A stretch of DNA of 64,000 nucleotides from Candidatus Omnitrophota bacterium. GTDB lineage: Bacteria > Omnitrophota > Gorgyraeia > Zapsychrales > Fredricksoniimonadaceae. The stretch is taken from NCBI GenBank assembly GCA_903908245.1, contig CAIVRE010000018.1:2876-66875 (forward strand). The letters run 5' to 3'. The stretch's first letter is position 1, and each line of letters starts with the position of its first letter. Below the pieces are notes generated by a model. That model did no database searches, had not been told where the DNA came from, and was given only the letters and a program-made list of their open reading frames with translations. The position numbers were made by a program, and so were the translations under genes. Of the stretch, positions 24,691 to 46,822 are shown one piece after another.

Positions 24691-24718
24691 AAAACCTTTG
24701 CCGAACCAGGAGGCGCAC

Positions 24719-25006
24719 ATGATGACGCTGATCCACTCCAAACTCGTCTTTAAGCACATGGTGGAGCTTCCGCATTGTGAATGTGTGTTCTGTTCCACCC
24801 AGGAAGAATCCACCGGGCGGACCAGGATCTACCTGCTGTTCAAGGAGCGTCATAAGGTTTATCAGCGTAACGGCGCCAAGGGCAACTGGGAAGAGCTGCT
24901 TGATGCCGAGGACCGGCAGCATGTATGGGATGGTTTTGAGCAGGCGGTGATGGAGCGGAAGATCCCCAGTTTTGTGGCGGCCTCTTCTGACTTTGCGGCT
25001 TTATGA
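24719..25006 (+). CDS. hypothetical small Cys/His-containing protein (95 aa) inserted between mraZ and rsmH
   Basis: The ATG is 6 nt after AGGAGG. The stop overlaps the rsmH start (ATGA). It carries an HCECVFC motif. No family recognised. Confidence 0.45.
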   Translation: MMTLIHSKLVFKHMVELPHCECVFCSTQEESTGRTRIYLLFKERHKVYQRNGAKGNWEELLDAEDRQHVWDGFEQAVMERKIPSFVAASSDFAAL

Positions 25007-25938: not shown

Positions 25939-26246
25939 AGGTCAGTGCTTTTTTGAAGGTTATGTGCATTATCACCACTATGGGGGTGCTTTATATTAAC
26001 CTTCAGATGAGTATTTATGACCTTGCCTACCAGGGCAAAAGAAAAGAGGACAGGATCGAGAAGCTTGCCGAGAATAATGTTATTATGAAGAACGATATTT
26101 TACGCCTGAAATCTTCCGATCATATCGGCCGGCAATTGCTGGTCAAAGAGAGCAATTACAAGTTCCTTGGCCGTAATAATGTGGTCGAAGTTGAGGAGGC
26201 GGGGGCCAGTCCGCTTTCAGGCCTTCTGGCATTTGCGAAATTTTAA
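25935..26246 (+). CDS. ftsL: cell division protein FtsL
   Basis: A small bitopic protein (TM, then a coiled-coil-like region) in the canonical position between rsmH and ftsI. Confidence 0.6.
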   Translation: MKVSAFLKVMCIITTMGVLYINLQMSIYDLAYQGKRKEDRIEKLAENNVIMKNDILRLKSSDHIGRQLLVKESNYKFLGRNNVVEVEEAGASPLSGLLAFAKF

Positions 26247-26329
26247 GGTTTTTACTTTTTTTCCCCCGAAATTTTCCTAGAATGAACGTATAAAACAAAA
26301 GATCAACCGTTCAAATAGAAGTCTATTCC

Positions 26330-28012: not shown

Positions 28013-28020
28013 AGGACAGT

Positions 28021-29553
28021 ATGGACAAAAAAACAGCTATTTTAAAGGTTAGCCTCGGTGTTGCGTTCATGGTGTTCTTTCTTTGGACGTTTTTTTCGTA
28101 TGTGCCTTTTAATATGGATGAGCTTTGTTCTTATCATGTGATCGCCTGCAATGAATATCCGTTGAACAAGCTCAATGTGTTCCGGGAGCGCTGTGATGCC
28201 TGCGACCTTTCGGTCCTGAAAGGCCCTTTTGTCCCCTTATTGACGTATTCGTATGTTGGAAGTTCTGCTGCTGCTGTTTATTATCCATTGTTCAAATTAT
28301 GGCGATCTCCGTATTCCATCAGATTCCTGGGGCTGCTGTTCCTGGCGGCGCAGGCGTTCCTTTTATATAAGATATTCCGTCTGGACCTCTTCTTCTGTTT
28401 CTTTTTCCTGTTGCTCTTCTTCCCGTATGCGTTTCAGCACATGGTTGATTTTGGGCCGAAGCTTCTGCAAACGACATCGATCTTTCTTGTTTTATATTTG
28501 TCGCGGCAGTGGCGCCTGGCGGCAGAGGCCGGATCGGGGAGCAGCTGGAAGTATCCCGCTTGCATAGGTGCGTTGATATTCCTGGGTGTGTGGACGAAGC
28601 TCGCGTATTTTCTTGTGGTGCCATCGATCCTTGTTCTTGTTGCGTATACTCTTTTTGAAGGGCGGGGGATGAGGGCTTTTGATTTGAAACAGTTCAAGCG
28701 CGGGTGGCTCTTCCTGGTTTTGACAGCGATCGTACCGAGTTACATTCTTTTGAATGGCGTTAATCGCTGGGGGGCAAAATATGCCAAGATCGCCGAGAAC
28801 GGGAAGTTTGTCCCATTATTCGATCTTGCCGGGTTGAGGGATCATTTTATAGCCCTTTCAAAATTCTTCACGAACCCGTTACAAAGTGCGCATGTGGTCT
28901 TTGAAGTAAAAGAGACCGCGACTTTTGCGGGAATATTCTTTTTGGTATTGATGGCCGGGTTTTTCTGTTTTGCTGTCTGGCGGATGTTTTCAAGCGGGAA
29001 AAGAGTCGCTTTTGTGGTATTGAATATAGCCCTTTTCTTTGTTGCATTGATCCTGATGGCGTATAACCAGAACGTTTGGGCCATGCATCATGTGGCGCTG
29101 GCATTCCCTTTTCTTCTTTTGGCTCTTTTTGATATCTTTTCCCAATGTTATAAGGACAAAGCGATGAAGATATTTCTTGCTGTCTTTATTTGTTCCAATC
29201 TTTTCTTTTATGGCGCTCTGACACAGGAAAAGCCTTTTGCGAACAGTTATCCGGGCCTGGTCCGTTTTAATGAATTTCTAAGCAAGGGGTATTCCAGGGA
29301 CCATGTTTTTGTTGTGATCGATTGGGGGATGTATTATTTGAAAAGCCTTTACGGCGAAAAGGATCAGTGCGTGATCTATATAGATCCTTTTACGGAAAAA
29401 GATGTGCCGGCGCTGAAGAAGATCCTTGAAACGACGAACAGAAGGCCGATGTTCATCGGCCGCAAGGACAGTTTTTATACCAGGGGGATCGCCGGGCATT
29501 TTACGGAAGTGACGCCCGGGTTTGATGTCGGCCCTTGGGCGGCCTGGCACTAG
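28021..29553 (+). CDS. polytopic membrane protein, putative GT-C-fold (ArnT/PMT-like) glycosyltransferase
   Basis: About 10-11 TM helices and a C-terminal soluble domain of about 100 aa. The first extracytoplasmic loop carries DExxxY (FNMDELCSYH), as in the PMT_2/ArnT family, plus 4 Cys. Local GC is visibly lower than in the flanking genes. Confidence 0.55.
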   Translation: MDKKTAILKVSLGVAFMVFFLWTFFSYVPFNMDELCSYHVIACNEYPLNKLNVFRERCDACDLSVLKGPFVPLLTYSYVGSSAAAVYYPLFKLWRSPYSIRFLGLLFLAAQAFLLYKIFRLDLFFCFFFLLLFFPYAFQHMVDFGPKLLQTTSIFLVLYLSRQWRLAAEAGSGSSWKYPACIGALIFLGVWTKLAYFLVVPSILVLVAYTLFEGRGMRAFDLKQFKRGWLFLVLTAIVPSYILLNGVNRWGAKYAKIAENGKFVPLFDLAGLRDHFIALSKFFTNPLQSAHVVFEVKETATFAGIFFLVLMAGFFCFAVWRMFSSGKRVAFVVLNIALFFVALILMAYNQNVWAMHHVALAFPFLLLALFDIFSQCYKDKAMKIFLAVFICSNLFFYGALTQEKPFANSYPGLVRFNEFLSKGYSRDHVFVVIDWGMYYLKSLYGEKDQCVIYIDPFTEKDVPALKKILETTNRRPMFIGRKDSFYTRGIAGHFTEVTPGFDVGPWAAWH

Positions 29554-29585
29554 TTTTTTCGCGCGCAAGATCTCGGCGAGGTTAA

Positions 29586-31007
29586 ATGCGGATATATCAT
29601 GTGGATGTTAACGCGGTTTGGGATGACTCCAGGCGAGTGACTCCGGGGAGTTTATTCGCGGCACTTGACGGCCCGGCCAGGAAGGGCGAGGAATTCATCC
29701 CGCAGGCTGTGGCTGGCGGGGCTTCGGTGATCGTATTGTCACGGGCCAGTGAAGCTGTATTCAGCCGCCAGTATCCGCAGGTCAAGTTCATCGGGGTGGA
29801 AGATCCCCGAATGGAGTTCAGGCAGGTCGTTGAGTCTTTTTACGGAAAGCCATCGGATAAGGTCAGGGTCATCGGGGTCACGGGAACGAACGGCAAGACA
29901 ACGATCACCTATTTCCTGGAGTCCATACTGGCTGCAGCGGGAAAGTCCTGCGGGGTTATCGGGACGGTCAATTATCGTGTGGCCGGTAAGGTTGTCCCGT
30001 CGACGAATACGACACCGGGCCTGTTGGACAATCAGATCTTTTTGAACGGGCTGGCTGCCGGGGGCATCCTTTATTCGGTGATGGAGGTTTCTTCGCATGC
30101 GCTTGATCAGGGGCGGGTGGACTTGATCGGGTTCAAGGGGGCTTTGTTCACGAACCTTACCGGCGATCATATCGACTATCATGGAACGATGGGGTCTTAT
30201 TTTGAAGCCAAGAGCCGGCTGTTCACAGGCCTTTCGGCGGATGCATATGCTGTTATTAATACCGATGATCTTTGGGGAAGAAAACTGGTGCCGTTGACGC
30301 GGGCCAGGGTCCTGACTTATGGTATTGACGAGGGGGCGGATGTTCGCGCAACGGCCATTGAGTCCGGGCGCAAGGGCGCGCGATTCGATGTTAAATTCCC
30401 CGGGGGAGAGGTTGAGATCAAGACCGTGTTCACGGGGAAGCATAATGTTTATAATATCTTGGCGGCGTTCGCGGCGGGCCTGGGCGAGGGGTTTGCGGCG
30501 GGTGTTATCAAAGAAGGGATAGAATCCCTTAAGAATGTCCCTGGCCGTCTGGAGCGGGTGGACTGCGGCCAGGAGTTTGATGTATTCATTGATTATGCGC
30601 ATACGGATGACGGGCTTAAGAATGTTCTGCAGGCTTTGCGGGAGGTCAGGCATAAGAAGCTGATCGTAGTGTTCGGCTGCGGAGGGGACCGCGACCGCAC
30701 CAAGCGCCCCCGGATGGGAACAGTGGCGTGTGAGCTGGCGGACTTTTCGATCATTACTTCGGATAATCCGCGCAGCGAGGACCCTCTGGGGATCATCCGT
30801 GAAGTGGTCCCCGGGTTCAGCAAGAAGACTTATGAGATCGTGGTCGAGCGTGAAGCGGCGATCCGCCGGGCGCTGGAATTGGCCGGGCCGGGAGACATTG
30901 TCCTTCTGGCCGGGAAAGGCCACGAGACATACCAGGTATTGAACGACAGGACCACTGATTGTGTCGAGAGGGATATTGTGGGCAGGATATTGTCAGAGAG
31001 GGGATAA
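29586..31007 (+). CDS. murE: UDP-N-acetylmuramoyl-L-alanyl-D-glutamate--2,6-diaminopimelate ligase
   Basis: Mur ligase P-loop GVTGTNGKTT, and the C-terminal DNPR motif (SDNPRSEDP) typical of meso-DAP-adding MurE. Confidence 0.9.
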   Translation: MRIYHVDVNAVWDDSRRVTPGSLFAALDGPARKGEEFIPQAVAGGASVIVLSRASEAVFSRQYPQVKFIGVEDPRMEFRQVVESFYGKPSDKVRVIGVTGTNGKTTITYFLESILAAAGKSCGVIGTVNYRVAGKVVPSTNTTPGLLDNQIFLNGLAAGGILYSVMEVSSHALDQGRVDLIGFKGALFTNLTGDHIDYHGTMGSYFEAKSRLFTGLSADAYAVINTDDLWGRKLVPLTRARVLTYGIDEGADVRATAIESGRKGARFDVKFPGGEVEIKTVFTGKHNVYNILAAFAAGLGEGFAAGVIKEGIESLKNVPGRLERVDCGQEFDVFIDYAHTDDGLKNVLQALREVRHKKLIVVFGCGGDRDRTKRPRMGTVACELADFSIITSDNPRSEDPLGIIREVVPGFSKKTYEIVVEREAAIRRALELAGPGDIVLLAGKGHETYQVLNDRTTDCVERDIVGRILSERG

Positions 31008-32371
31008 TGTTCAATGTCGCGGAGATCCTTGAAGTCACTGGCGGGAAATTATTGCAGGGGGCTGTGTCTTTGCGTGTGAACGGGGTCAGTACCGATACGC
31101 GCAAGGCTACCAAAGGCGATCTCTTTATTGCGATCAAGGGAGATAATTTTGACGGCCATGATTTTACGGCCAAGGCCGTTTGTAACGGGGCATTTGCTCT
31201 TCTGGTCAGCCGTGCGGATATTGAATGTCCTTTGGGCACGGCGGTTATCCTGGTCCAGGATACGGTCAAAGCCCTGGGTCTTCTTGCCAGGTATCATCGC
31301 GGGAGGTTTAAACTGCCGGTCATTGCCATTACCGGCAGCGCCGGGAAAACAACGACCAAGGAATTCATTGCCGCAGTCCTGGGGAAAAAATATCGTGTGC
31401 TTTATAACAAAGGCACAGAAAACAACCATATCGGGGTACCGATGACGCTGTTGCAGCTTAACAAGACCCATCAGGCTGCGGTCATTGAGGCGGGTACCAA
31501 TCATTTCGGGGAGATATCCTGGTTGGGCGAAGTCATTTGTCCGACGGTGGCTGTTTTTACCAATATCGGGCATTCGCACTTGGCCGGCCTGGAAAGCCCG
31601 GAGGGCGTTTTTAAAGAAAAAGTGACTTTGCTTGATCATCTGGCGAAGAACGGGACGGTTATCCTTAACAGTGATGATGAGCGTTTACGCGGGATCCTCA
31701 AGAGAAAGCCGAAGCCCAATATTGTCACTTACGGCGTCGAGCATAAAGCGGATATCAAGGCCATAGCGGTATATTCCAAAGGCAAGGGGCTGGAGGTTGA
31801 GCTGGACCGCGGGTTGAAGTTCAACCTGGCTGTGCCCGTGTGGGGGAATGTTGCCAATGCGCTGGCGGCTGTTGCGTGCGGCAAGCTTTTGAAGGTCCCT
31901 TTTAAGGGGATTGCATCGGCGTTGGGTCGGGTTGAGCCGGCAAAAGGCCGCCAGTGCTTCCATTCGGTCATGGGCGTGACCGTGATCGATGATACGTATA
32001 ACGCGAATCCGGTATCGTATCATAACGCAATCCGCACGTTGTCGCTTGTGCGGGGCCGTGGACGCACCTTCCTGGTGGCGGCGGATATGCTGGAGCTGGG
32101 CGGCCATTCGGAAGCCTTGCACGCGCAAGTCGGTGAGGCTGCTGCTGCCGCGGGGATCGATCATATTCTGACCATCGGCCGCTGGGCCGGGCTTGCAGGA
32201 GAAAAGGCGAAGAATATTGCCCCGTCAGTGTGGGTCAAGCATTATAGTAAACAGGAAGATATTTTTGTGGACCTCGGGACTTTGCTCCGGGAGGGCGATG
32301 TCGTTCTGGTGAAGGGGTCGCGCGGGATGCATATGGACCGGTTGGTTGAGAATTTGCTGGCAGTGAATTAA
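31007..32371 (+). CDS. murF: UDP-N-acetylmuramoyl-tripeptide--D-alanyl-D-alanine ligase
   Basis: Mur ligase P-loop GSAGKTTTKE. The gene order is murE-murF-mraY. The start overlaps the murE stop (TAATG). Confidence 0.9.
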   Translation: MFNVAEILEVTGGKLLQGAVSLRVNGVSTDTRKATKGDLFIAIKGDNFDGHDFTAKAVCNGAFALLVSRADIECPLGTAVILVQDTVKALGLLARYHRGRFKLPVIAITGSAGKTTTKEFIAAVLGKKYRVLYNKGTENNHIGVPMTLLQLNKTHQAAVIEAGTNHFGEISWLGEVICPTVAVFTNIGHSHLAGLESPEGVFKEKVTLLDHLAKNGTVILNSDDERLRGILKRKPKPNIVTYGVEHKADIKAIAVYSKGKGLEVELDRGLKFNLAVPVWGNVANALAAVACGKLLKVPFKGIASALGRVEPAKGRQCFHSVMGVTVIDDTYNANPVSYHNAIRTLSLVRGRGRTFLVAADMLELGGHSEALHAQVGEAAAAAGIDHILTIGRWAGLAGEKAKNIAPSVWVKHYSKQEDIFVDLGTLLREGDVVLVKGSRGMHMDRLVENLLAVN

Positions 32372-32396
32372 CCCGGATCAATCCGAGAGGCTGGAT

Positions 32397-33488
32397 ATGT
32401 TTTATTTTTTGTCCCAATTCAGGTATGAATTCTTTCCGTTGAATATTTTTAAATACATCACTTTTCGCGCCGGCCTGGCGGCCGTGACCACCTTTCTGAT
32501 CATGGTTGTCATAGGGCCATGGTTCATCCGGAAACTGGGGGAATGGGGCCTGGGGGAGAAGCCGGTGCTGGGAGGAGGAAGGGAAGCAGTTCTGGGGGCA
32601 GAGCTTAAACCCAAGGTCGGGACTCCGACGATGGGGGGGGTGCTGATCATCGGGAGTATTTTATTGTCCGTACTGCTTTGGGCGGACATGACCAATCCGT
32701 ATATCCTGCTGACGATGTTCACGATGGTCTGGATGGCGCTGGTCGGGTTTGCGGATGATTATATGAAGATCTCCGGCATGAACAAGAACGGGATGCCGGC
32801 GCGGACGAAAATGATATGCCAGGCGATCCTTGCGATCATTGTAAGTTTTTATGTTTATGCCTATCTTGACGTGTCAACGGCCCTGGATGTCCCTTTTATG
32901 AAGAAAATGGTGATCAACCTCGGGCCTTTCTATATGGTGCTGGTCATGCTGATCCTGATAGGCTCGTCCAACGCGGTCAACCTGACCGACGGGCTTGACG
33001 GGTTGGCGATCGGATGCACGCTGCTGGTGGCATTGACACTGGCCATTCTTTGTTATGTAACGGGGAATGTGCATATCAGTGATTATCTGTTTATCCCCTA
33101 TATCCCCGGCTCCGGAGAGCTCACGATCTTTTGTACGGCGATCGTGGGGGCCAGCCTGGGGTTCTTGTGGTTCAACGCCTATCCGGCAACGGTGTTCATG
33201 GGGGATGTCGGCGCGCTGGCTCTGGGGGGGACGCTGGGGATCATAGCGGTTTTTATCAAGAAGGAGTTCCTGCTTGTTATTCTCGGCGGGGTATTTGTCT
33301 GGGAGGCTTTGTCGGTCATTATGCAGGTGACATCGTTTAAATTGACCGGCAAGCGGATATTCCTGTGTTCTCCCTACCATCATCATCTTCAGAAGTTGAA
33401 CTGGAAAGAATCCAAGATCGTGATCCGTTTCTGGATCGTGGGGATCATCCTGGCGTTTGTGACATTGACGACGTTGAAAATCCGTTAA
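32397..33488 (+). CDS. mraY: phospho-N-acetylmuramoyl-pentapeptide-transferase
   Basis: 10-TM protein with the DDxxD-like motifs (GFADDYMKI, NAVNLTDGLDGLA). Confidence 0.95.
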   Translation: MFYFLSQFRYEFFPLNIFKYITFRAGLAAVTTFLIMVVIGPWFIRKLGEWGLGEKPVLGGGREAVLGAELKPKVGTPTMGGVLIIGSILLSVLLWADMTNPYILLTMFTMVWMALVGFADDYMKISGMNKNGMPARTKMICQAILAIIVSFYVYAYLDVSTALDVPFMKKMVINLGPFYMVLVMLILIGSSNAVNLTDGLDGLAIGCTLLVALTLAILCYVTGNVHISDYLFIPYIPGSGELTIFCTAIVGASLGFLWFNAYPATVFMGDVGALALGGTLGIIAVFIKKEFLLVILGGVFVWEALSVIMQVTSFKLTGKRIFLCSPYHHHLQKLNWKESKIVIRFWIVGIILAFVTLTTLKIR

Positions 33489-33497
33489 CGGGTTATT

Positions 33498-34745
33498 ATG
33501 GATATAAGGAATAAAAGGGTCTGTATCATCGGCGCGGCGAAAAGCGGGGTTGCGGCTGCGAACCTGGCGCAAGCTATGGGCGGGGCCGTCCGGATCTCGG
33601 ACAGCCAGCCTTTGGCAAAGCTCGACCGGGCGTTGGCGGGGCTCAAGGACCGCGGCCGTGTTGAGGTTGAAGCGGGGGGGCATACCCGGGATTTTGTGAC
33701 CGCGAGCGACCTGGTGGTCGCAAGCCCCGGTGTCTGGAAGGATGCGCCGCCGCTCGAATGGGCGCGCGCGGCCGGTATCCCGGTGATGGGAGAGATCGAG
33801 TTCGCGTGGCGTTTTTGCACCAAGCCGGTGATCGCGGTAACGGGATCGAACGGCAAGACAACAACGGTCTCGCTGATCGCCCGTGTCCTGGAGGCCGGCG
33901 GCAAGAAAGTTTCTTTATGCGGCAATATCGGTACGCCCTTCTCCGATAAGGTGATCGACGGGGATGTCGAGATCTTTGTGGTGGAGATCAGTTCATTTCA
34001 GCTGGAGCTTTGCACGACGTTCCGTCCAAAGGTCGCGCTGATCACGAATTTCAGCCAGAACCATCTGGACCGGCACCCGACGATGGAGGAGTATTTCGAG
34101 GCCAAAAAGCGCCTGTTCATGAACCAGACGGCGGATGATCACGCGATCTTGAATGCACGGGACCCTTTGGTCGCCAGGCTGAAAGATGAAATCAGTTCCC
34201 GGGTCAGTTTCTTTAATGCTGAGGGGGAGAAAGACAATCCGAATTATCTTGCGGTGTTGGCCGTCGCGCGGATATTGGGAATTGCAGAGGCGGTGACAGG
34301 AAAGGTTCTTGATGAGTTTACCGGCGTTGAGCATCGTTTGGAGCATGTGCGGTCTCTGGATGGGGTCGAATATATTAATGATTCCAAGTCCACAACGGCC
34401 GAGGCCGGGCGTTGGGCGCTTGAGCGGATGCAGAAGCCTGTCGTGCTTATTGTCGGAGGATTTGACAAGCACATTGATTATGCCTGTTTACGGGATCTGG
34501 CTTGTCAGAAAGTTCGCGTGATGGTGGCGTTTGGCGCCATCAGGCAGCAGTTCAAGGATACATTCGGGGATGTTCTTGCGGTTGAGGTCATTGATGGCGG
34601 GTTGGATTCGGCCGTGGCATATGCGCGTAGTGTGGCGCATTCCGGTGATTGCGTTCTGCTGTCCCCGATGACTTCAAGTTTTGATATGTTCAAGAAGTTC
34701 GAGCATCGGGGTGAAGTGTTCAAGGATATTGTGAGGGCTTTTTGA
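33498..34745 (+). CDS. murD: UDP-N-acetylmuramoylalanine--D-glutamate ligase
   Basis: Rossmann N-terminal domain (VCIIGAAKSG) and Mur ligase P-loop GSNGKTTT. Confidence 0.9.
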   Translation: MDIRNKRVCIIGAAKSGVAAANLAQAMGGAVRISDSQPLAKLDRALAGLKDRGRVEVEAGGHTRDFVTASDLVVASPGVWKDAPPLEWARAAGIPVMGEIEFAWRFCTKPVIAVTGSNGKTTTVSLIARVLEAGGKKVSLCGNIGTPFSDKVIDGDVEIFVVEISSFQLELCTTFRPKVALITNFSQNHLDRHPTMEEYFEAKKRLFMNQTADDHAILNARDPLVARLKDEISSRVSFFNAEGEKDNPNYLAVLAVARILGIAEAVTGKVLDEFTGVEHRLEHVRSLDGVEYINDSKSTTAEAGRWALERMQKPVVLIVGGFDKHIDYACLRDLACQKVRVMVAFGAIRQQFKDTFGDVLAVEVIDGGLDSAVAYARSVAHSGDCVLLSPMTSSFDMFKKFEHRGEVFKDIVRAF

Positions 34746-35842
34746 TGCGTGAGACCAGGGCAGCGTTATTCATGATCTTCAGTATCCTCATGGCGATCGG
34801 CGTGGTGATGATCTACAGTTCAAGCGGGATCTACGCGCTTGAGGTTATGCACAACAGTTCCTATTTTCTTTTCAGGCATCTGATGTTCCTGGGGATCGGG
34901 ACGGGCCTGATGTTCGGCGTTATGCTGATGGACTATCGCCTTCTGCGTAAGTGGGCGCGGCCGATCCTGGTGCTGATCATCGTGATGCTGGTGCTGGTCC
35001 TTGTCCCCGGCATCGGCAAGATATCTTCGGGCGCCCGCCGCTGGTTCAATCTCGGGCCAATTAATTTTCAGCCTTCCGAAATGGCCAAGGTCGGTCTGAT
35101 CATTTATCTGGCGGATTTTTGCGCGCGCAAGCAGGATTGCATCCGGAATTTATGGAAAGGGTTTGTCCCTGCGTTCCTGGTGATGGGGGTATTATCGGTC
35201 CTGATCATGAAGCAGCCGGATATGGGCAATACTGTCCTTGTATTCCTGATCACGATGACGATGTTGTTTGTCGCCGGGGCACGGCTGAAGCACCTGGTCA
35301 ATGTCCTTTGGCCGGCGATCCCTTTGGGGGTTTTCCTGGTATTGATGGAGCCGTACCGCATACGCCGTGTTGTTGCGTTCATGAACCCGTGGGAGGACCC
35401 CCAGGGCGCGGGGTTCCAGTTGTCCCAGTCGCAGATCGCGCTGGGTTCCGGGGGGTTCTGGGGGGTAGGCCTGGGCAGGAGCGAGCAGAAGCTGTTGTAC
35501 CTTCCGGCGGCGCACACGGATTTTATTTTTTCCATTATCGGTGAAGAGCTGGGATTCCTCGGGGCCCTGGCGGTGATCGTCCTGTTCGCCCTGTTCCTCT
35601 GGCAGGTTATCCGGATCCTGCGTCAGACGGTCGATCCGTTCGGCTATTATCTGATCTTCGGGATCCTGATGATGCTCAGTGTCCAGGTGGTCGTGAATTT
35701 CGGGGTCAGTATCGGCGCTTTGCCAACGAAAGGGCTTCCTCTGCCGTTCATCAGTTATGGGGGGTCCGCCTTGATCTTCAATATGATGGTGGTCGGGCTT
35801 ATTCTTAACGTTTCGCGCACACAGGACCTTGGCAGTGGATAA
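34745..35842 (+). CDS. ftsW: FtsW (SEDS-family peptidoglycan glycosyltransferase)
   Basis: 10-TM SEDS protein with the conserved FQPSE.KV and LPxxHTDFIFS motifs. The ATG overlaps the murD stop. Confidence 0.85.
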   Translation: MRETRAALFMIFSILMAIGVVMIYSSSGIYALEVMHNSSYFLFRHLMFLGIGTGLMFGVMLMDYRLLRKWARPILVLIIVMLVLVLVPGIGKISSGARRWFNLGPINFQPSEMAKVGLIIYLADFCARKQDCIRNLWKGFVPAFLVMGVLSVLIMKQPDMGNTVLVFLITMTMLFVAGARLKHLVNVLWPAIPLGVFLVLMEPYRIRRVVAFMNPWEDPQGAGFQLSQSQIALGSGGFWGVGLGRSEQKLLYLPAAHTDFIFSIIGEELGFLGALAVIVLFALFLWQVIRILRQTVDPFGYYLIFGILMMLSVQVVVNFGVSIGALPTKGLPLPFISYGGSALIFNMMVVGLILNVSRTQDLGSG

Positions 35843-36917
35843 GAACAAGAGTTTAATTATTGCGACAGGCGGCACCGGCGGACATATTTATCCGGCGATT
35901 GTGACTGCGGAGGAATTGCGCCGGCGCGGGTGGAATGTCCGGTTCATCGGCGCGTTTGGCCCCGCAGGGGATAAACTTGCTTTTCGGGGGTTTGAATACA
36001 AGGATATTGTCGTGAAGGGGTTTGTTTCGAAAGACCTGAAGGCGATGTTTTCGGCGTTGATCTGCCTTTTAAAGGCGTGCATTTCCTGTGCAAAAGATAT
36101 TTCCCGTGCGAGGGCGGATGTGATCCTCGGTTTTGGCGGGTACAGCTCTTTTCCGGCCGTGATCGCCGGAAAGCTGATGGGCGTCAAAACCATGATCCAT
36201 GAGCAGAATGTTTGCCCCGGTGAGGCCAACAAGGTCCTGGGCGGGATCGTAAAAAAGGTCGCCATCAGTTTCAAGGATACCCAGAGTTTTTTTGCCGGAC
36301 GGGATGTTGTTTGGACCGGATATCCGATGCGGTCGCTCGACCCCGGGCGGTCGCGTAAAGAGGTGCTCCGGGTATTTGGCCTGCAGCAAGGGCGTAAGAC
36401 CATTCTTGTTTTTGGGGGAAGCCAGGGCAGCCGGGCGATCAATCATGCCGTGCTTGATTGCCTTGAAATGGTCAGCCGGGACATGCCATGGCAGGTTTTT
36501 CATCTTGCCGGTAAGGGCGGGGCGGAAGAATTAAGGCCGCGTTACGCCAAACTTCCATTCCCTTTTTATTTGCAGGATTATATGGAGAACATGTCGGATG
36601 CTTACGCGGTCGCCGACCTGGTGATCGCCCGTTCCGGCGCGGGGACTGTTACAGAGCTTGGCCTTTTGGGGGTTCCGGCCATTTTGATCCCGTATCCTTA
36701 TGCGAATGGTCATCAGGAAGCCAACGCGCAGGTTCTGGCACGTCGTTCGGCCGCTGTAATAATTCGGGAAAAAGACTTGAACCCCGCCATGCTTGGGGAT
36801 AAGATTTTTTCCGGGCTTGAAACGGGCTCGTCCGCAGAAGTGCTACGCCAGGGATTATCCAAGGATATTGTATCTGACGCAGTTATTCGGCTCGCTGATG
36901 AGGTTGAATTATTGTGA
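35829..36917 (+). CDS. murG: undecaprenyldiphospho-muramoylpentapeptide beta-N-acetylglucosaminyltransferase
   Basis: N-terminal G-loop ATGGTGGHIYPA, with a C-terminal GT-B domain. Confidence 0.85.
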   Translation: MAVDKNKSLIIATGGTGGHIYPAIVTAEELRRRGWNVRFIGAFGPAGDKLAFRGFEYKDIVVKGFVSKDLKAMFSALICLLKACISCAKDISRARADVILGFGGYSSFPAVIAGKLMGVKTMIHEQNVCPGEANKVLGGIVKKVAISFKDTQSFFAGRDVVWTGYPMRSLDPGRSRKEVLRVFGLQQGRKTILVFGGSQGSRAINHAVLDCLEMVSRDMPWQVFHLAGKGGAEELRPRYAKLPFPFYLQDYMENMSDAYAVADLVIARSGAGTVTELGLLGVPAILIPYPYANGHQEANAQVLARRSAAVIIREKDLNPAMLGDKIFSGLETGSSAEVLRQGLSKDIVSDAVIRLADEVELL

Positions 36918-37699
36918 CCATGCTCCGGTGTGCTTTATTGGCATTATTGTTCATGTTCCCGGCTTTGATGGCCAGTTCCGCCGAATGGCATGAGGTCAAG
37001 GCCGAGCATTTTATCGTTTATTACAAGAATGCCTCGGCCCGTTTTGTGGAAAATACGGTGTCCAGGGCGGAAGAGGATTATAAGGCTACGGCCACAAGTC
37101 TGGGATTCACCCGGTATAAGGGCTGGACCTGGAATGGCCGCGTGAAGATCTATATTTACGATAATGCCGAAGATTACAAAGCTTCATCGGGGCTTGGGTG
37201 GTCGGCAGGGTCGGTGCAGACCAGGTCGAAGGTCATTTCGGCATATCCGTCGGCGCACGGGTTCTTTGATTCCACATTGCCCCATGAGATCGGGCATATT
37301 ATTTTTCGCGATTTTGTCGGGGAGGATGCGGCGGTCCCTTTGTGGCTCGAGGAGGGTGTCGCGATGTTCCAGGAGGAGTCCGGGCGCTGGGGTTCGGATG
37401 ATGAGGTGCGGCGCATCATGGAGGAAAACAAGTTCATTTCCCTTGCGGACCTGACGGGCCTTGAATTGAACCGGAATTCCGACCCGGAGCTGGTGCGTAT
37501 TTTTTATGTTGAGGCGGCCAGCCTGGTCAGTTTTTTGCTTGATGAAGGAGAGATGTACCGTTTCGCGCGCCTTTGCCGGGAATTAAAAAGCGGTACGCGT
37601 TTTGAATGGGCATTGAAGAAAGCTTATATGAAGTATCAGACGATCAATGCCCTCGAGGCGGCCTGGAAGGACCATTTAAGCTATGAAAAGAAAAAATAA
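36914..37699 (+). CDS. secreted putative gluzincin-type metallopeptidase (Peptidase_MA-like)
   Basis: Signal peptide (ALLALLFMFPALMASSA). HEIGH zinc-binding motif, with a downstream Glu in LEEG about 18 residues after the second His, giving HEXXH-X18-E. Both ends overlap neighbours: murG at the start and murC-ddl at the stop. Confidence 0.55.
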   Translation: MTMLRCALLALLFMFPALMASSAEWHEVKAEHFIVYYKNASARFVENTVSRAEEDYKATATSLGFTRYKGWTWNGRVKIYIYDNAEDYKASSGLGWSAGSVQTRSKVISAYPSAHGFFDSTLPHEIGHIIFRDFVGEDAAVPLWLEEGVAMFQEESGRWGSDDEVRRIMEENKFISLADLTGLELNRNSDPELVRIFYVEAASLVSFLLDEGEMYRFARLCRELKSGTRFEWALKKAYMKYQTINALEAAWKDHLSYEKKK

Positions 37700-40085
37700 T
37701 CTTAAGACCAAAATAAAAAAATATCATTTTATAGGGATCGGCGGAATGGGGATGGGGAATCTGGCCCTGTTGATGCTGGCCAAGGGGTATTCTATCAGCG
37801 GGTCCGATGAGAAAGAGGGCGATCTGACGCGCCAGCTGCGGGACAGGGGCGCGAAGGTGTATATCGGCCATGACCTGCGTAATATTGACGGTGCCGATTG
37901 CGTGGTATATTCTTCGGCGATCTCGGCAAGCAACCCGGAAATGTTCGAGGCGGTGCGTTTGCATATGCCGATCCTTAAAAGGGCGGAGTTGCTGGCCCAA
38001 TTGGTGAACAAGGAAGTGGGCATCACTGTTGCCGGTGCCCACGGCAAGACCACAACATCCTCCATGGCGTCCCTGCTTTTGATCAACGCCGGGCTGAATC
38101 CTACCACCGCTATCGGGGGGGTCGTCCTCCAGGGATATAACGCGAATCTCGGGATAGGGCGGCATATTGTGGCGGAAGTTGATGAGAGCGACGGTTCTTT
38201 CCTGTATTTTTCTCCGCATTTCTCGATCATCACCAATATCGATCGCGAGCATCTGGATCATTACAAGACCATGGATAATGTCCGGGGGGCTTATGCCAAG
38301 TTCGTGGAGCGCACGGTGCCGGGTGGCGTTGTTATTGCCTGCGGGGATAATCAGGAGCTGCGCGTGATCGTTGAGAATGGCGGGCGCCGTTATGTGACTT
38401 ATGGTTTTGCCGATGATAACGAGTGGGTGGCGACGAATATTCAGTGTGATGCCAACGGTTCTTCTTATGATTGCTATTATCATCAGCAGATGATCGGGCG
38501 TTTTGGCCTTACGGTGCCGGGGAAACACAATATCCTCAATTCCCTTGCGGTCATTGTGCTGGGGTTTGAGCTGAAGATCGAGGTCCCGGTCATCATGGAA
38601 ACGCTGGCGGCTTTTCAGGGGGTCAAGCGCCGCTTTGAGCGCAAGGGGGAAGTGGGAGGGGTCCTGGTGGTGGATGATTATGGCCATCATCCGACGGAGA
38701 TCGCGGCGACCCTTCAGGCCGCGCGTACGCTGGGCCGCAAGCGCCTGATCGTGGCGTTTCAGCCGCATCGTTATTCCCGTACCCAGCTTCTGATGAGCGA
38801 GTTCGCGGCTTGTTTTACCCTGGCGGATCAGTTGATCCTGACGGATATCTATTCCGCCGGAGAAAAGCCTGTTGAAGGGGTTACGACGGAGGTCCTCCTG
38901 GAAAAGGTGCATGCCCAGCGTCCCCAGGAGCTCGCGTATTTGAAGAAAGAGGCGATCGTCCCTCATTTATTATCCATTGTCCATCCGGGAGACCTGGTCT
39001 TGACGCTTGGCGCCGGTGATATCACACGGATATCCGATGAGCTGGTCCGTGCGCTCGAGGGGCGCGTCGGGTTCGATCATATTCCGCCGGCACGGGAGCG
39101 TTCGGTCGATGAAATCAGGGCGCTCGGTACCATTGGTGTTGTCCTGGGCGGTTGTTCGTCAGAGAGGGAGGTTTCCCTCCGGTCGGGGGGCGCGGTGGTC
39201 AAGGCTTTGACAGGAGCGGGATGCCGGGTCAAGGTCCTCGACCTGGTCACTGAAGATCGCGACCTGGTCAAGGAGTGGTTCAGATCGGAGAAGATCGATG
39301 TGGTGTTCATCGCATTGCACGGGCGGTTCGGCGAGGATGGCGGGCTGCAGGCAATACTCGACGAGATGGATATCCCTTATCAGGGCTGCGGTCCTTCGGC
39401 CAGTTACGCGGCGTTCAATAAATCGGTGGCCCAGAAGCAGTTCGAAGACAAGGGCGTGCGTACTCCAAGGACTGTGACCATTAAAGGGGCCGCAGCCTTG
39501 TGCCTTGATGATATTTTCAAGGGGGTCGGGCCTTTTCCGATGGTGGTAAAGCCCGCGTGTGAAGGGTCGAGCATCGGGGTCGTTCTTGCAAGGGACGAGG
39601 CCTTGTTACGCGATGCCGTGCTCAAGGCGGAAGTGTTCGGCAGGGATATTGTTATCCAGGAGTATATCCGTGGCCGGGAACTGACGGTCGGCATCCTGGG
39701 CAGCTGTCCGCTGCCGGTCGTCGAGATCTGTGTCCCGCCGGAGGATGGCCTGATCTTTGATGTTTCGGCGAAATATGAAAAGACTACGACACGGTATATT
39801 GTTCCGGCCGATCTTTCGCCGGATGTGACGGCCGATGTCCAGGCAGAGGCTCTTAAGGCTTACCGGGCGCTTCGTTGCGAAGGGTTCGGGAGAGTGGATG
39901 TCCTGCTTGACGCGAATAATATCCCTGTGGTCCTGGAGATCAATACCATTCCCGGGTTCACTGCGACCAGCCTTTTGCCCAAAGCGGCTCGTGCTGCCGG
40001 ACTGGATTTTACGCAGCTGTGCCTGACACTGGTTGAAATGGCGTATGGCAAAAAGAAATCAGAATCGATCTCCCATCAGCATTGA
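37683..40085 (+). CDS. murC: bifunctional UDP-N-acetylmuramate--L-alanine ligase / D-alanine--D-alanine ligase (MurC-Ddl fusion)
   Basis: 800 aa. The N-half is MurC (IGIGGMGMG, GAHGKTTT). The C-half from about residue 470 is Ddl, an ATP-grasp domain (GVVLGGCSSEREVSLRSG...KPACEGSSIGV...). Confidence 0.85.
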   Translation: MKRKNNLKTKIKKYHFIGIGGMGMGNLALLMLAKGYSISGSDEKEGDLTRQLRDRGAKVYIGHDLRNIDGADCVVYSSAISASNPEMFEAVRLHMPILKRAELLAQLVNKEVGITVAGAHGKTTTSSMASLLLINAGLNPTTAIGGVVLQGYNANLGIGRHIVAEVDESDGSFLYFSPHFSIITNIDREHLDHYKTMDNVRGAYAKFVERTVPGGVVIACGDNQELRVIVENGGRRYVTYGFADDNEWVATNIQCDANGSSYDCYYHQQMIGRFGLTVPGKHNILNSLAVIVLGFELKIEVPVIMETLAAFQGVKRRFERKGEVGGVLVVDDYGHHPTEIAATLQAARTLGRKRLIVAFQPHRYSRTQLLMSEFAACFTLADQLILTDIYSAGEKPVEGVTTEVLLEKVHAQRPQELAYLKKEAIVPHLLSIVHPGDLVLTLGAGDITRISDELVRALEGRVGFDHIPPARERSVDEIRALGTIGVVLGGCSSEREVSLRSGGAVVKALTGAGCRVKVLDLVTEDRDLVKEWFRSEKIDVVFIALHGRFGEDGGLQAILDEMDIPYQGCGPSASYAAFNKSVAQKQFEDKGVRTPRTVTIKGAAALCLDDIFKGVGPFPMVVKPACEGSSIGVVLARDEALLRDAVLKAEVFGRDIVIQEYIRGRELTVGILGSCPLPVVEICVPPEDGLIFDVSAKYEKTTTRYIVPADLSPDVTADVQAEALKAYRALRCEGFGRVDVLLDANNIPVVLEINTIPGFTATSLLPKAARAAGLDFTQLCLTLVEMAYGKKKSESISHQH

Positions 40086-40827
40086 CCTTGTGCGTTTCGG
40101 GGTCATTGCCGTTTTTGTTCTGTTGGCGCTGGTCATCTCCGGGGTCGCCCTGACGTCATTTGTGCGTCATTCCGGCCTCTTTGTGATACGGGATGTTGTG
40201 ATCAGCGAAAGCCTGGGGGAGGTCAATGTCCCCGAGCTTGCGAAGTTGAAGGGGCAGAATATTTTTCTGGTCGATCTTGAAAAGGTCGAGCAGAAGGTGA
40301 TCTCCCGGTATCCGGGGATCGCCGGCCTCGAGGTCCTGCGGCGTTTCCCGGATGAGATATTAGTGGCGGGGGCGCGCCGGACAGCGTTCGCGGCGGCATT
40401 GATGGATGGTAAAAGTGTGCTGCTGTCCCGTGACGGTTGTTTTATCGGCGCTTTGGGAAAAGAGGATGGGCCCCTTGCCGTTATCAAAGGGATGCGGCAT
40501 CAGAAGGTTTCGTCCGGTATAATGCTTAACGATCCTTTTGGCCTGGAAGCCTTGAAAGCGGTTGAACTGGTCTATAAAGACCCGGCATTGGCTGCACTGC
40601 ATTTGCGCGGCCTGGATGTGAGCGACCCGAACAAGATCGTGTTCACTTTTGGCCTGGCGGAAGATCCGGCCAGATTCGAGGTTATGGTGGATAAGGATAA
40701 TTACGCGTTAAAGCTCAAGACCCTTTCGGTCATGGTCGCCAGGACGGAGCTCGCGGTCAATGAGGTTAAATATATCGACCTCAGGTTTGAAACGCCTGTG
40801 ATCGGCAAGAGGAAGACAAAAAAATGA
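40033..40827 (+). CDS. ftsQ: cell division protein FtsQ (POTRA-containing)
   Basis: Short basic cytoplasmic tail, one TM helix, then a POTRA-like/beta-rich periplasmic domain, in the canonical position before ftsA. The start is uncertain: ATG 40033 overlaps murC-ddl, and GTG 40090 is the alternative. Confidence 0.65.
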   Translation: MKWRMAKRNQNRSPISIDLVRFGVIAVFVLLALVISGVALTSFVRHSGLFVIRDVVISESLGEVNVPELAKLKGQNIFLVDLEKVEQKVISRYPGIAGLEVLRRFPDEILVAGARRTAFAAALMDGKSVLLSRDGCFIGALGKEDGPLAVIKGMRHQKVSSGIMLNDPFGLEALKAVELVYKDPALAALHLRGLDVSDPNKIVFTFGLAEDPARFEVMVDKDNYALKLKTLSVMVARTELAVNEVKYIDLRFETPVIGKRKTKK

Positions 40828-42077
40828 AAAAAGTCAGGGATCTTGTCGGACAGTTTTTTCGGGAGCGCATTTTCTGCGGGCTGGATATCGGGTCGCAGAA
40901 GATCAAGGCCAGCCTTTGCAAGGTCCAGGATGCGGAGAATTTTGAATTGCTGGGGGTCTATGAAGTGGATACCCGGGGGTTCAAGGACGCTTCGGTCAAT
41001 GACCTGGGCGAGTTCTCGGGGGCGATCAGTGCGGCGCTCGACGGCCTGGCCAGGAAGACCAAGACAGGGTCCAGGTTCCGGGATGTTTATCTTGGCCTCG
41101 GAGGAGAGTTGGTGGAGACCCGGATGAGCCGGGCGGTCATTCCGCTCACCGAGCGCGGGAATAAAGTGATCGTTCCCAGTGATGTGAAGGCGGCCCGTCA
41201 GCAGGCGCGCCTGCTGGGAATGCGGCTTGAGGAAGATGTCGTTGAAGATTTTGTCCGGCAGTTCAAGATCGACGATATCAATGTGGCGCTCAATCCGGTC
41301 GGGCTTTACGGGCGCAAGCTGGAGGTCGAGGTCCTGCTGGTGCTGATAAACAATACACGGTTGCGGAATATTCAGAAGGCGGTCAAACAGGCCGGCTATG
41401 AGGTCAATAAAGTGTTCTTTAACGGTGCGGCGTTGAGTGAGGCGTCCATTGGCCATCAGAGGCGCAATGATGGTTGCGTGCTGGTCGATGTGGGGGCCAG
41501 GAAGACGGAAATATATATTTTCAAGGAAGGGCTTCTTAAACATTTCAATTTTGCCTTGTTCGGCGGGGACCGGATCACGGCCCGTCTGGCGAAAGAGCTG
41601 AAGATCTCTTTCGCCCTGGCGGAAGACATTAAAAAAAGTTATGGCCGCCTGGGTGATAAAACGCAGCATGGTGCGGAGGATATCATTATCAAGAAGGACC
41701 AGGGGTTTATCCCTATCAGGCATGCCGCTATCCGCGGTCCGATCGATGAAGAGGTCGGTGTGCTGATCGAGCATATCCGTGACAGTATCGCGGCTTCAGG
41801 GTATGAAGGGCAGATCCGCTCCGGTATTGTTATGGCGGGCGGAGGGGCTTTGATGCCGGGCCTGATGGAGCATGTTGAGATCTCTCTTGGCCTTCCTGTT
41901 ACAGCGGCGCGCAGTATCCCCGGCCTTGTCCCGGCGTTGTTGTATGCGGTATCCACCAGCATCGCGGAAATGGGGTACAAGGGCAGCATGCGGTATGTCT
42001 TTGATACACGAAAACCGAAGGACTGGTGGGATGCCCTGGTGTCCAGGTTCAGGGAAATGTGCAACGAGTATTTTTGA
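40824..42077 (+). CDS. ftsA: cell division protein FtsA (actin-like ATPase)
   Basis: SHS2/actin-fold motifs (GLDIGSQKIKA, VLVDVGARKTEI, IVMAGGGALMPGL), a C-terminal amphipathic helix, 417 aa. It follows ftsQ. It could alternatively be PilM-like, but the context favours FtsA. Confidence 0.75.
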   Translation: MKKVRDLVGQFFRERIFCGLDIGSQKIKASLCKVQDAENFELLGVYEVDTRGFKDASVNDLGEFSGAISAALDGLARKTKTGSRFRDVYLGLGGELVETRMSRAVIPLTERGNKVIVPSDVKAARQQARLLGMRLEEDVVEDFVRQFKIDDINVALNPVGLYGRKLEVEVLLVLINNTRLRNIQKAVKQAGYEVNKVFFNGAALSEASIGHQRRNDGCVLVDVGARKTEIYIFKEGLLKHFNFALFGGDRITARLAKELKISFALAEDIKKSYGRLGDKTQHGAEDIIIKKDQGFIPIRHAAIRGPIDEEVGVLIEHIRDSIAASGYEGQIRSGIVMAGGGALMPGLMEHVEISLGLPVTAARSIPGLVPALLYAVSTSIAEMGYKGSMRYVFDTRKPKDWWDALVSRFREMCNEYF

Positions 42078-42085
42078 CGGCTGTT

Positions 42086-42445
42086 TTATTCGTCGTTGAT
42101 GTTGCGGTCTGTCCTGCGGCGCGCGAGGTTGAAGTCCATGTTCTTGAGGACACTGCGGATCTTGAGCATCCCGGAGAACATGAACAGCATCCAGAAAGAG
42201 TTGAGGAGCATCAGGAATACGATCAAAAGCCCAAGGTAGTTCTGGTTGAGCAGAAGCCGTTCCGTGAGCGATATTTTTGCGATATCGGCCGTTGTATTAA
42301 TGGTGTTGAGGGAAAGGATAAAGAACACGACGAACGCCACGATCAGGATCATTTCAAAGAAAAGCACGTAGAAGTGGCGTACGAACCACTGATTGGAGCG
42401 GTTATCCCACTGACGGACCTGGTTCATGAAAGAAGTTAATGACAT
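42086..42445 (-). CDS. hypothetical two-TM membrane protein
   Basis: Minus-strand ORF convergent with ftsA, with two long hydrophobic helices. Start taken at MSLTSF, but the longer start at 42493 is possible. The local sequence is AT-richer than its surroundings. Confidence 0.4.
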   Translation of the reverse strand: MSLTSFMNQVRQWDNRSNQWFVRHFYVLFFEMILIVAFVVFFILSLNTINTTADIAKISLTERLLLNQNYLGLLIVFLMLLNSFWMLFMFSGMLKIRSVLKNMDFNLARRRTDRNINDE

Positions 42446-42510
42446 GGGAATCATTTTATGTGTTTTGTCGATGAGTGTCAATTTTTTAAACATATAACCC
42501 TTGTGAGAAC

Positions 42511-42888
42511 ATGATCCCCAAGATCCTTATTGTTGACGATGACCGGATCAATATCACCCTGCTGAAATTCACGCTTAAAGAGAAGCGTTATGATGTGCTG
42601 ACCGCGGGCGACGGCATTGAAGGTTTAAAGGCGGTGGCGGAGTTCAGGCCCGACCTGATCATCCTTGATGTCCAGATGCCTAAGATGAATGGTTTTGAGT
42701 TCATGTCCGAGTTGAAATGCCTGCCGGAGGGAGGGGCTACGCCGGTCATTATGCTGACATCCAATGACAATATGCAGGACATGTTCTATTCGGAAGGGGT
42801 GAAGGGCTATTTTGTGAAACCGGTCGATCCGCTGAAGATGGAAGCTAGGATCCGTCAGCTTCTGGGGATCACGGGTGAGATCCTTTAA
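42511..42888 (+). CDS. single-domain response regulator (CheY-like receiver)
   Basis: Acidic pocket DDD, the phospho-acceptor Asp in LIILDVQMP, Thr in MLTSN, and Lys in FVKP. It has no output domain. Confidence 0.8.
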   Translation: MIPKILIVDDDRINITLLKFTLKEKRYDVLTAGDGIEGLKAVAEFRPDLIILDVQMPKMNGFEFMSELKCLPEGGATPVIMLTSNDNMQDMFYSEGVKGYFVKPVDPLKMEARIRQLLGITGEIL

Positions 42889-43892
42889 TGCGTCTTTCCG
42901 ATTTTGATTATCATCTGCCTGAAACGCTGGTCGCCCAGTATCCTGTGGCAAAGCGTGATGAGGCCCGCCTTCTGGTGATCGACCGGGCCGCGCGGACCAT
43001 TCGTCATGATGTTTTTTATAATATCAGCCGTTATCTTCCCGCTCAAAGCCTTCTCGTTGTTAATAACAGCAGGGTGATCCATGCCCGGTTGCTCGGCCAT
43101 AAGCCGCGCACGGGGGGGCAGGTTGAAGTTTTTTTATTGAAGGATCTGGGAAGCCGGCGTTTTAAGGCCCTGGTGCGGCCGCTGGCGAAGATCAATCTCG
43201 GTGAGCCGCTGGTCTTCGCCGGCGGGGTGACCGCCCGCCTTGTCGATCGGGAGGCCAGGGTGGTTGAGTTCGACCAGGATAATGTATTAAAAGTGCTGGA
43301 GAATGTGGGGCATATCCCGTTACCGCCGTATATTAACCGGCCGGATGAGGAGGCTGACCGTGTGAATTATCAGACGGTGTATGCAAAGGCCGCTGGGTCA
43401 GTGGCGGCTCCGACGGCGGGCTTGCACTTTACCAGGCCGCTCATGGTTGCCCTGAAAGGACAGGGGCATTCTTTTGCCCAGACGACGCTTCATGTGAATT
43501 ACGGGACATTCAAGCCGGTTGAGGCAGAGGATGTTGTTTCACATCCGATGCATAGTGAAGATTACGCGATATTACCGTCCCAATTGAAGGCGGTGCTGGC
43601 GGCGAAGGCGGACAAACGGCCTGTGGTTGCGGTCGGCACGACCAGTTGCCGTGTGCTCGAGTCTTATGCCCGCTCCGGCGAGGCGAAGGCTTCGACCCGG
43701 TTATTCCTGTATCCGGGCGCGGACTTTCGGATGGTCGACGCGCTGATCACCAATTTTCATCTTCCCAAAAGCACTCTTCTGATGCTTGTTTCGGCTTTTG
43801 GCGGGCTTGATCTTATCCGTCAGGCGTATGCTGAGGCTATCCGTGAAAAATACCGCTTTTACAGTTATGGCGACGCGATGTTGATCGTCTGA
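42888..43892 (+). CDS. queA: S-adenosylmethionine:tRNA ribosyltransferase-isomerase
   Basis: The start MRLSDFDYHLPETLVAQYP, plus ...PLPPYI and GTTSxR, are QueA signatures. Confidence 0.9.
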   Translation: MRLSDFDYHLPETLVAQYPVAKRDEARLLVIDRAARTIRHDVFYNISRYLPAQSLLVVNNSRVIHARLLGHKPRTGGQVEVFLLKDLGSRRFKALVRPLAKINLGEPLVFAGGVTARLVDREARVVEFDQDNVLKVLENVGHIPLPPYINRPDEEADRVNYQTVYAKAAGSVAAPTAGLHFTRPLMVALKGQGHSFAQTTLHVNYGTFKPVEAEDVVSHPMHSEDYAILPSQLKAVLAAKADKRPVVAVGTTSCRVLESYARSGEAKASTRLFLYPGADFRMVDALITNFHLPKSTLLMLVSAFGGLDLIRQAYAEAIREKYRFYSYGDAMLIV

Positions 43893-46402: not shown

Positions 46403-46822
46403 ATGACAGACCTGTCCCATATTGCAGAAGAGATCGCTCTCATCGGCCCTCGTATTGGCCGCAGGATCTTCCTTGATATTTTTCAATCGTCGGATATTTC
46501 TCATTCCCAGCTCTTTGTGATCATGACACTGGTCCATAACGGGCCGTCGCGTTCATCGGATATCGGCAAAGAACTCAAGGTCGCGCCTCCGACCGCGACG
46601 GGTATTATCGGGCGTTTGGAAAGATCTGGTTATGTCCGTCGCGTGGCCGATAAAGGAGACCGCCGTGCGGTCATTGTTGACCTGACGCCTGAAGGGCGTA
46701 AACTGGCGCAAAAATTACGCGCTATCGTTGTTAACCGCTGGACAAAAATACTGTCGAAGATCTCCCGCGAGGATGCGGAGAAATACCTGGAAATATTAAA
46801 GAAAATCAACGAGGCCCTATGA
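46403..46822 (+). CDS. MarR-family transcriptional regulator
   Basis: Winged-HTH pattern (SHSQLFVIMTLVHNGPSRSSDIGKELKVAPPTATGIIGRLERSGYVRRVADKGDRRAVIVDLTPEGRKL). The ORF-track N-terminal extension (from 46241) overlaps tgt and the operator region, so it is unlikely to be translated. Confidence 0.75.
   Translation: MTDLSHIAEEIALIGPRIGRRIFLDIFQSSDISHSQLFVIMTLVHNGPSRSSDIGKELKVAPPTATGIIGRLERSGYVRRVADKGDRRAVIVDLTPEGRKLAQKLRAIVVNRWTKILSKISREDAEKYLEILKKINEAL

Follow-up and report, generated by a model that had tools for sequence, protein, structure and literature searches.

The gene studied here, named pepMA, was found in a 64,000-nt stretch of a Candidatus Omnitrophota genome (contig CAIVRE010000018.1, positions 2,876 to 66,875 of the forward strand; hereafter the window). 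It lies between murG and murC-ddl in the division and cell wall (dcw) cluster. Its identity as a gluzincin, i.e., a zinc peptidase of clan MA, and its location are held with high confidence. Among the loci recovered through pepMA, the gene keeps a constant place in the dcw operon of Omnitrophota, and a sister lineage was found at one fixed slot of type II secretion system (T2SS) operons. Tentatively, and at somewhat below an even chance, pepMA is considered to be an accessory hydrolase for machines that cross or rebuild the cell wall.

Features of pepMA, in window coordinates:
36914 to 37699, plus strand: pepMA coding sequence, 261 aa with a GTG start, predicted exported MA-clan (gluzincin) zinc peptidase
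37283 to 37297, plus strand: HEIGH zinc-binding and catalytic motif, residues 124-128 (His124, Glu125, His128)
37343 to 37357, plus strand: W144-L-E-E147-G148 motif, with LEEG at residues 145-148, equivalent to WLxEG of M1 peptidases
36914 to 36982, plus strand: predicted Sec signal peptide, residues 1 to ~20-23 (MTMLRCALLALLFMFPALMA/SSA), found by a heuristic, approximate cleavage site

Active site and fold

The original prediction had read a HEXXH-X18-E signature from the DNA and proposed a secreted, gluzincin-type metallopeptidase. The signature was recovered as HEIGH at residues 124-128 and the invariant Glu147 (nt 37352-37354), which stands 18 residues past His128 and is presumed to be the third zinc ligand. 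In an alignment of 24 diverse orthologues, His124, Glu125, His128 and Glu147 were invariant in 24/24, and so were Trp144 and Gly148; Glu146 was E or D among relatives. The HExxH motif was present in 216 of 218 family sequences, and the spacing from HEXXH to Glu was off by one residue in a minority of relatives. Judged from these residues, pepMA carries the complete gluzincin active site (His124, Glu125, His128 and Glu147). Tyr198 is suspected to be the transition-state residue, and a role is also suspected for Cys221/Arg222.

The profile search assigned pepMA to Pfam PF13485 (Peptidase_MA_2), with 46.2 bits against a gathering cut-off of 32.4 (E 6e-12; residues 73-255, profile positions 17-199 of 201). 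An AlphaFold model computed from the 24 orthologues reached pLDDT 87.5 and pTM 0.83. Its best structural matches were all gluzincins, whose targets are the ordinary L-peptide bonds of proteins and peptides. The predicted fold has the two subdomains of the thermolysin type: the N-terminal one combines a mixed sheet with the active-site helix, and the C-terminal one is a helical bundle. pepMA would be folded as a zinc endopeptidase. The proposed peptidase class was borne out by both the profile and the model. A chance open reading frame (ORF) or a fortuitous HEXXH on a non-peptidase fold was rejected on the Pfam score, the fold, the conservation of the motif and the selection on the gene described below.

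Neither the single protein nor a profile found a significant match among the sequences of solved structures. The best hit was a Deinococcus M1 peptidase (6a8z, E 1.7), and in this non-significant profile alignment PHELGH...PLWLEEG stood opposite HELAH...WLSEG. NCBIfam gave only a sub-threshold match to flagellinolysin (15.9 bits, cut-off 205). Known families of peptidoglycan peptidases (M15/LAS, M23, M14, M74, NlpC/P60 and YkuD) were absent from the Pfam and NCBIfam matches and from the structural matches listed. In the viral structure library, only baculovirus enhancin-like metalloproteases were matched; no phage lysins appeared, so these matches lend no support to a lysin-like activity.

Comparison with other gluzincins

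Some orthologues are already recorded at NCBI as "peptidase MA family metallohydrolase". PF13485 is a broad catch-all family, and no characterised member of it was found in the literature. Within the family, the pepMA subfamily is distinguished by a single domain with a signal peptide and, as far as seen, by its restriction to Omnitrophota-type genomes and two operon slots.

M1 aminopeptidases and leukotriene A4 hydrolase share the HEXXH-X18-E spacing and the third-ligand motif with pepMA. However, the GXMEN exopeptidase motif of M1 is missing, and the equivalent strand of pepMA reads W96-S-x-G99. The N-terminal beta-sandwich and the C-terminal helical domain of M1 are missing as well, PF01433 gave no match, and the mature protein has only ~240 aa, whereas M1 enzymes have 600-900 aa. 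Because the GXMEN motif and the flanking M1 domains are lacking, pepMA is not an M1 enzyme and is probably an endopeptidase.

The peptidase domain of M9 collagenases (ColG, ColH, ColT and the Vibrio/Grimontia enzymes) resembles pepMA at the level of fold only, with 12-16% identity and no M9 Pfam match. In M9 enzymes the third ligand follows HEXXH by ~28-30 residues and an activator domain is needed; pepMA has no activator domain of this type. The M30 hyicolysin family, represented by lugdulysin (PDB 7bb8), is 15% identical to pepMA. Lugdulysin is an extracellular staphylococcal protease with a propeptide, and its gene has no operon link to wall synthesis.

Start site and selection

The ends of pepMA are overlapped with both neighbours, as had been proposed.

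36914 to 36917, plus strand: GTGA overlap of the pepMA start (GTG 36914-36916) and the murG stop (TGA 36915-36917), presumed translational coupling
37683 to 37699, plus strand: 17-nt overlap of the pepMA 3' end (TAA ending at 37699) and the murC-ddl start (ATG at 37683)
36900 to 36903, plus strand: Shine-Dalgarno-like GAGG inside murG, 10 nt upstream of the GTG, which may serve pepMA

An alternative ATG occurs at 36920, two codons downstream of the GTG. The GTG of pepMA is supported by its closest relatives, which share the GTG(-4) start. One database entry for the identical protein (P0001) has 248 aa and begins 13 codons later, at Met14 (window 36914-36955). This is probably a miscalled start codon, since part of the signal peptide would be lost with it.

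pepMA is a real gene under purifying selection. The ratio of nonsynonymous to synonymous substitution rates (dN/dS) was ~0.11-0.17 against the nearest relatives, with dS near saturation. The GC content of 0.51-0.54 matches that of the neighbours, and no pepMA paralogue was found in the window. With the position kept in all relatives (see below), these two observations led to the rejection of a recent insertion or mobile DNA.

Predicted export to the periplasm

The N-terminus of pepMA shows Arg5, a hydrophobic core (mean Kyte-Doolittle value, KD, 2.9) and small-x-small sites at residues 20-23. The same layout was searched for in 106 homologues with complete N-termini by a heuristic based on hydrophobicity and small-x-small sites. 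A hydrophobic h-region was found in 105 of the 106 and a positive n-region in 100, and all 106 had a small-x-small site directly before the conserved Trp25. The claim of a secreted protein with a signal peptide was therefore upheld, within the limits of the heuristic. A lipoprotein or membrane anchor was rejected, as a lipobox-like motif occurred in only 5/106 homologues. The mature protein is a single domain of pI 5.6 with one conserved Cys.

On the plus strand (window 46819-52402), the gene of a TolC-like outer-membrane factor stands in a row with those of an AcrB-type RND pump and an MFS transporter. Proteins of the OEP (TolC-type) and ACR_tran (AcrB-type) families imply two membranes and a periplasm. 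pepMA would accordingly be a periplasmic protein, as far as its signal peptide indicates.

In a metagenomic protein of 409 aa (P0205), the peptidase domain is fused to a TlpA-like thioredoxin domain (AhpC-TSA/Redoxin). The fusion agrees with a periplasmic location of the family, and it may point to a link with redox processes.

Position in the dcw cluster

Few bacterial gene arrays are as well conserved as the dcw cluster, and murG and murC are normally direct neighbours. In the window, the order is mraZ, rsmH, ftsL-like, ftsI, a gene for an unknown membrane protein, murE, murF, mraY, murD, ftsW, murG, pepMA, murC-ddl, ftsQ and ftsA.

24253 to 42077, plus strand: dcw cluster, holding pepMA
35829 to 36917, plus strand: murG, the presumably coupled gene upstream (Pfam Glyco_transf_28 and Glyco_tran_28_C)
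37683 to 40085, plus strand: murC-ddl, the presumably coupled gene downstream, 800 aa (Mur_ligase, Mur_ligase_M, Mur_ligase_C, Dala_Dala_lig_N and Dala_Dala_lig_C)

Both neighbours had been named correctly, as their Pfam domains confirm. Since three Mur ligase domains and two D-Ala-D-Ala ligase domains lie in one ORF of 800 aa, murC-ddl is a true MurC-Ddl fusion. Inside the cluster, no promoter-like or terminator-like site rose above the background.

The protein search returned 897 homologues. The best of them were ~259 aa, all with PF13485, and the named ones came from metagenome-assembled genomes (MAGs) of Candidatus Omnitrophota. One genome per species was then scanned, and 275 loci encoded relatives. 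Synteny was read by tblastn of the window's own proteins, as far as each contig extends, in the best 80 of the 275 loci (41-76% identity to pepMA, nearly all labelled Omnitrophota). The order mraY-murD-ftsW-murG-X-murC(-ddl)-ftsQ-ftsA was found in 80/80. The divergent relatives P0126, P0250 and P0334 were likewise placed between murG and murC (loci L081, L088 and L093), although P0250 and P0334 are only 30-33% identical to pepMA. A recent random insertion, which would have left pepMA alone in its position, does not agree with this record.

The junctions were also conserved. Among 74 related loci, the commonest junction at both ends of pepMA was a 4-nt ATGA/GTGA overlap, and in most of them the murC start overlapped pepMA by 4-23 nt. 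Through translational coupling of this kind, pepMA would be made in a fixed proportion to MurG and MurC.

The original prediction had further held that no peptidase is usual in dcw clusters, and the published content agrees: precursor enzymes of the wall, division proteins, MraZ and MraW are listed, and no peptidase (PMC10214165). In many Actinobacteria MurG and MurC are fused (PMC10214165), which makes a secreted protease between them all the more unusual. No description of pepMA was found in the literature on PF13485 or on the dcw genes, peptidoglycan and T2SS of Omnitrophota. Papers on Omnitrophota and PVC bacteria mention intact peptidoglycan and dcw genes and do not mention the peptidase; one of them is a preprint (10.64898/2026.06.07.730766). 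The status of pepMA as a conserved dcw gene and its twin in T2SS operons thus appear to be undescribed, whereas the Pfam family is known, though functionally uncharacterised.

Sister lineage in type II secretion operons

An exhaustive profile search gave 227 cluster representatives at E<=1e-30. When contexts were sampled among the more distant representatives, a sister lineage proved to occupy one fixed T2SS slot, i.e., secretin/gspE-gspF-X-gspG-...-gspK, in which gspG is the gene of the major pseudopilin. The slot was confirmed by individual inspection of five loci (L084, L086, L087, L090 and L091). A scan of metagenomes that started from the T2SS lineage yielded 80 loci (L094-L173), of which four were too short to judge and 76 were informative. 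Of the latter, 54 had the relative in the T2SS slot, 21 had it in the dcw slot and one had it in neither. In three loci (L087, L097 and L098), a PBP2-RodA pair is encoded immediately upstream of the T2SS operon. The named relatives of the T2SS lineage came from MAGs of Omnitrophica or of the "PVC group".

The motifs W-S-x-G, LPHExxH and PLWxEG were retained in both contexts. In a neighbour-joining tree, computed without support values, the main dcw clade was monophyletic, and the T2SS-linked and the deep dcw-linked sequences branched separately.

The T2SS slot raises the question of whether the protein is itself exported cargo, i.e., an extracellular protease sent through the T2SS against hosts or prey, with the dcw copy as a co-opted or coincidental duplicate. 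Substrates of the T2SS are folded hydrolases exported by Sec, often metalloproteases, and some, such as E. coli SslE and Klebsiella PulA, are encoded beside secretion genes. Omnitrophota are moreover thought to be host-dependent or predatory (preprint 10.64898/2026.06.07.730766). However, genes of such cargo are usually variable and peripheral, whereas the gspF-gspG slot was fixed in 54 loci, and cargo would not explain why, in every relative, a copy is coupled to murG and murC. Cargo is thus considered very unlikely.

A few relatives were found in unrelated contexts. One adjoins metH (L082), one follows genes of a two-component system (L089), two lie beside giant genes and an ATP synthase operon (L085 and L092), and one more has a further unrelated context (L155). 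These cases favour a general housekeeping peptidase of the periplasm, acting on peptides or misfolded envelope proteins, for which the dcw position would be a frozen accident. The superfamily is also very large and diverse, with 8093 cluster representatives at E<=0.001, and a gene whose codons overlap those of its operon neighbours is not easily dislodged. Nevertheless, accident alone is not expected to place 75/76 informative loci in two independent, deeply conserved slots of envelope machines, and the dcw linkage holds down to 30% identity. A housekeeping role is therefore judged quite unlikely.

The relative in L085 (P0230, 6001-6777) carries RELAR in place of HExxH, and both zinc-binding histidines and the conserved Cys are lost. 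Its gene is flanked by an unknown gene and by that of a GGDEF response regulator, and a giant Big_13 protein is encoded nearby. From these substitutions, P0230 is a probable pseudo-enzyme.

P0230 indicates that the fold can survive without catalysis, and on this analogy pepMA might be a non-catalytic scaffold with ligand binding as its only role. However, every dcw-linked or T2SS-linked copy examined retains HExxH and the downstream Glu, and a scaffold is regarded as highly improbable.

Proposed function

It is reasonable to consider what the two slots have in common. The machines encoded by dcw and T2SS operons both build or pass through peptidoglycan, and such machines often carry wall hydrolases; this is what suggests an accessory hydrolase. 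Dedicated wall hydrolases are common in operons of envelope machines, for example FlgJ in flagella, VirB1 in type IV, EtgA in type III and TagX in type VI secretion. As proposed here, pepMA would be a catalytically competent periplasmic endopeptidase that serves envelope-spanning machines. Its target would be an obstacle in the periplasm that stands in the way of divisome and secretion system alike: peptide links in the peptidoglycan sacculus, or else proteins that are embedded in the sacculus or tethered to it. Once this obstacle is cut, insertion of new septal wall or assembly of the secretion apparatus could proceed.

The likeness to known wall hydrolases of machines and septa is one of function only. 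FlgJ, VirB1, EtgA and TagX, the amidases AmiA/B/C with EnvC/NlpD, and MepM and MepS are periplasmic hydrolases for a machine that crosses or splits the sacculus. These enzymes are lytic transglycosylases, amidases, M23, LAS or NlpC/P60 proteins, and no relation of sequence or fold to pepMA was found.

Several points weigh against an action on the wall. To our knowledge, no gluzincin of clan MA cuts peptidoglycan. D-amino acids and gamma links occur in the stem peptides and direct cross-links, and the known enzymes for these structures have other folds (M15/LAS, M23, M14, NlpC/P60, YkuD and serine PBPs), whereas the nearest structural neighbours of the pepMA model are all hydrolases of proteins or peptides. 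No wall-binding module (LysM, SPOR, PG_binding or SH3b) was detected in pepMA by Pfam. A gene position can also persist by inertia, as overlapping codons make excision costly. Finally, all loci were recovered via pepMA itself and not via murG or murC.

Some of these points speak for the chief rival, a regulatory or turnover protease, which would cleave the protein parts or partners of the surrounding machine and so activate, trim or remove them. In the dcw setting, the candidate targets are the periplasmic domains of FtsQ, FtsL and FtsI or the wall hydrolases and synthases; in the T2SS setting, they are the pseudopilins. Protein cleavage would suit the gluzincin fold and its nearest structural neighbours, as well as the lack of a wall-binding module. 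Each copy also sits at one fixed slot in an operon that encodes bitopic periplasmic proteins, and translational coupling would link the dose of the protease to that of the machine. In model bacteria, Prc/NlpI, CtpA/LbcA and RasP may serve as analogies. However, two sets of substrates would be needed, yet the surroundings of the active site are nearly alike in both contexts (WSxG, LPHExxH and PLWxEG), and pepMA has no interaction domain of the PDZ or TPR type. A regulatory protease is thus possible but somewhat unlikely.

The exported proteases Prc-NlpI, CtpA-LbcA and BepA, which control wall hydrolases, PBP3 processing or outer-membrane assembly, are again functional analogues only. Unlike pepMA, Prc and CtpA are serine proteases of family S41, and BepA is an M48 enzyme with TPR. 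We know of no dcw cluster that encodes Prc, CtpA or BepA.

The accessory hydrolase has a bolder form. pepMA would then be the first cell-wall hydrolase of clan MA (gluzincin) and a "gate-opener" specific to the phylum. It would cut peptides of peptidoglycan or proteins tethered to the wall, and separate copies would serve the divisome and wall synthesis on the one hand and the T2SS on the other. This form is considered unlikely. If it holds, wall remodelling in Omnitrophota would differ from that of model bacteria, which use amidase, M23 and lytic-transglycosylase systems.

The existence of a secreted protease kept between murG and murC has a meaning for a whole phylum of bacteria that are ultra-small, largely uncultured and probably host-dependent, as it would point to a lineage-specific step of wall growth or division. 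The T2SS twin gives a comparative handle on that step. If the wall is the substrate, peptidoglycan hydrolysis would extend to the gluzincin fold; if a machine protein is the substrate, division and secretion would prove to be under a new level of proteolytic control. Being short, soluble and easy to express, pepMA lends itself to direct biochemistry.

Other observations in the dcw region

The fusion of murC and ddl is not general among the relatives. A MurC ORF of ~780-840 aa was found in only ~16/74 related loci, and the others have a separate murC of ~460-480 aa. In the more distant relatives (L081, L088 and L093), murC, murB and ddl are separate genes in the order murC-murB-ddl. MurC-Ddl chimeras have been reported for Chlamydiae and Firmicutes (PMC10214165).

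A second atypical, uncharacterised insert of the dcw cluster was found between ftsI and murE, i.e., an ORF of 510 aa (28021-29553, plus strand) with about nine hydrophobic segments. It gave only a sub-threshold match to TgpA_N (25.4 bits, cut-off 30).

ftsA is not followed by ftsZ (window 42078-43892, a stretch with a lower GC content of ~0.46). The tubulin signature GGGTG[STA]G was not found in the six frames of the window or of the 80 related loci, and ftsZ may lie elsewhere in the genome. The region 3' of ftsA holds a small membrane-protein ORF (42086-42493, minus strand), a receiver-domain-like ORF (42511-42888) and queA.

Close orthologues with the same Omnitrophota-type dcw cluster were found in genomes labelled "uncultured Planctomycetales", "Elusimicrobia bacterium" or "Lysobacterales bacterium" (L006, L010, L018, L027, L035, L036 and others). 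These labels are probably taxonomic mislabels of MAGs.

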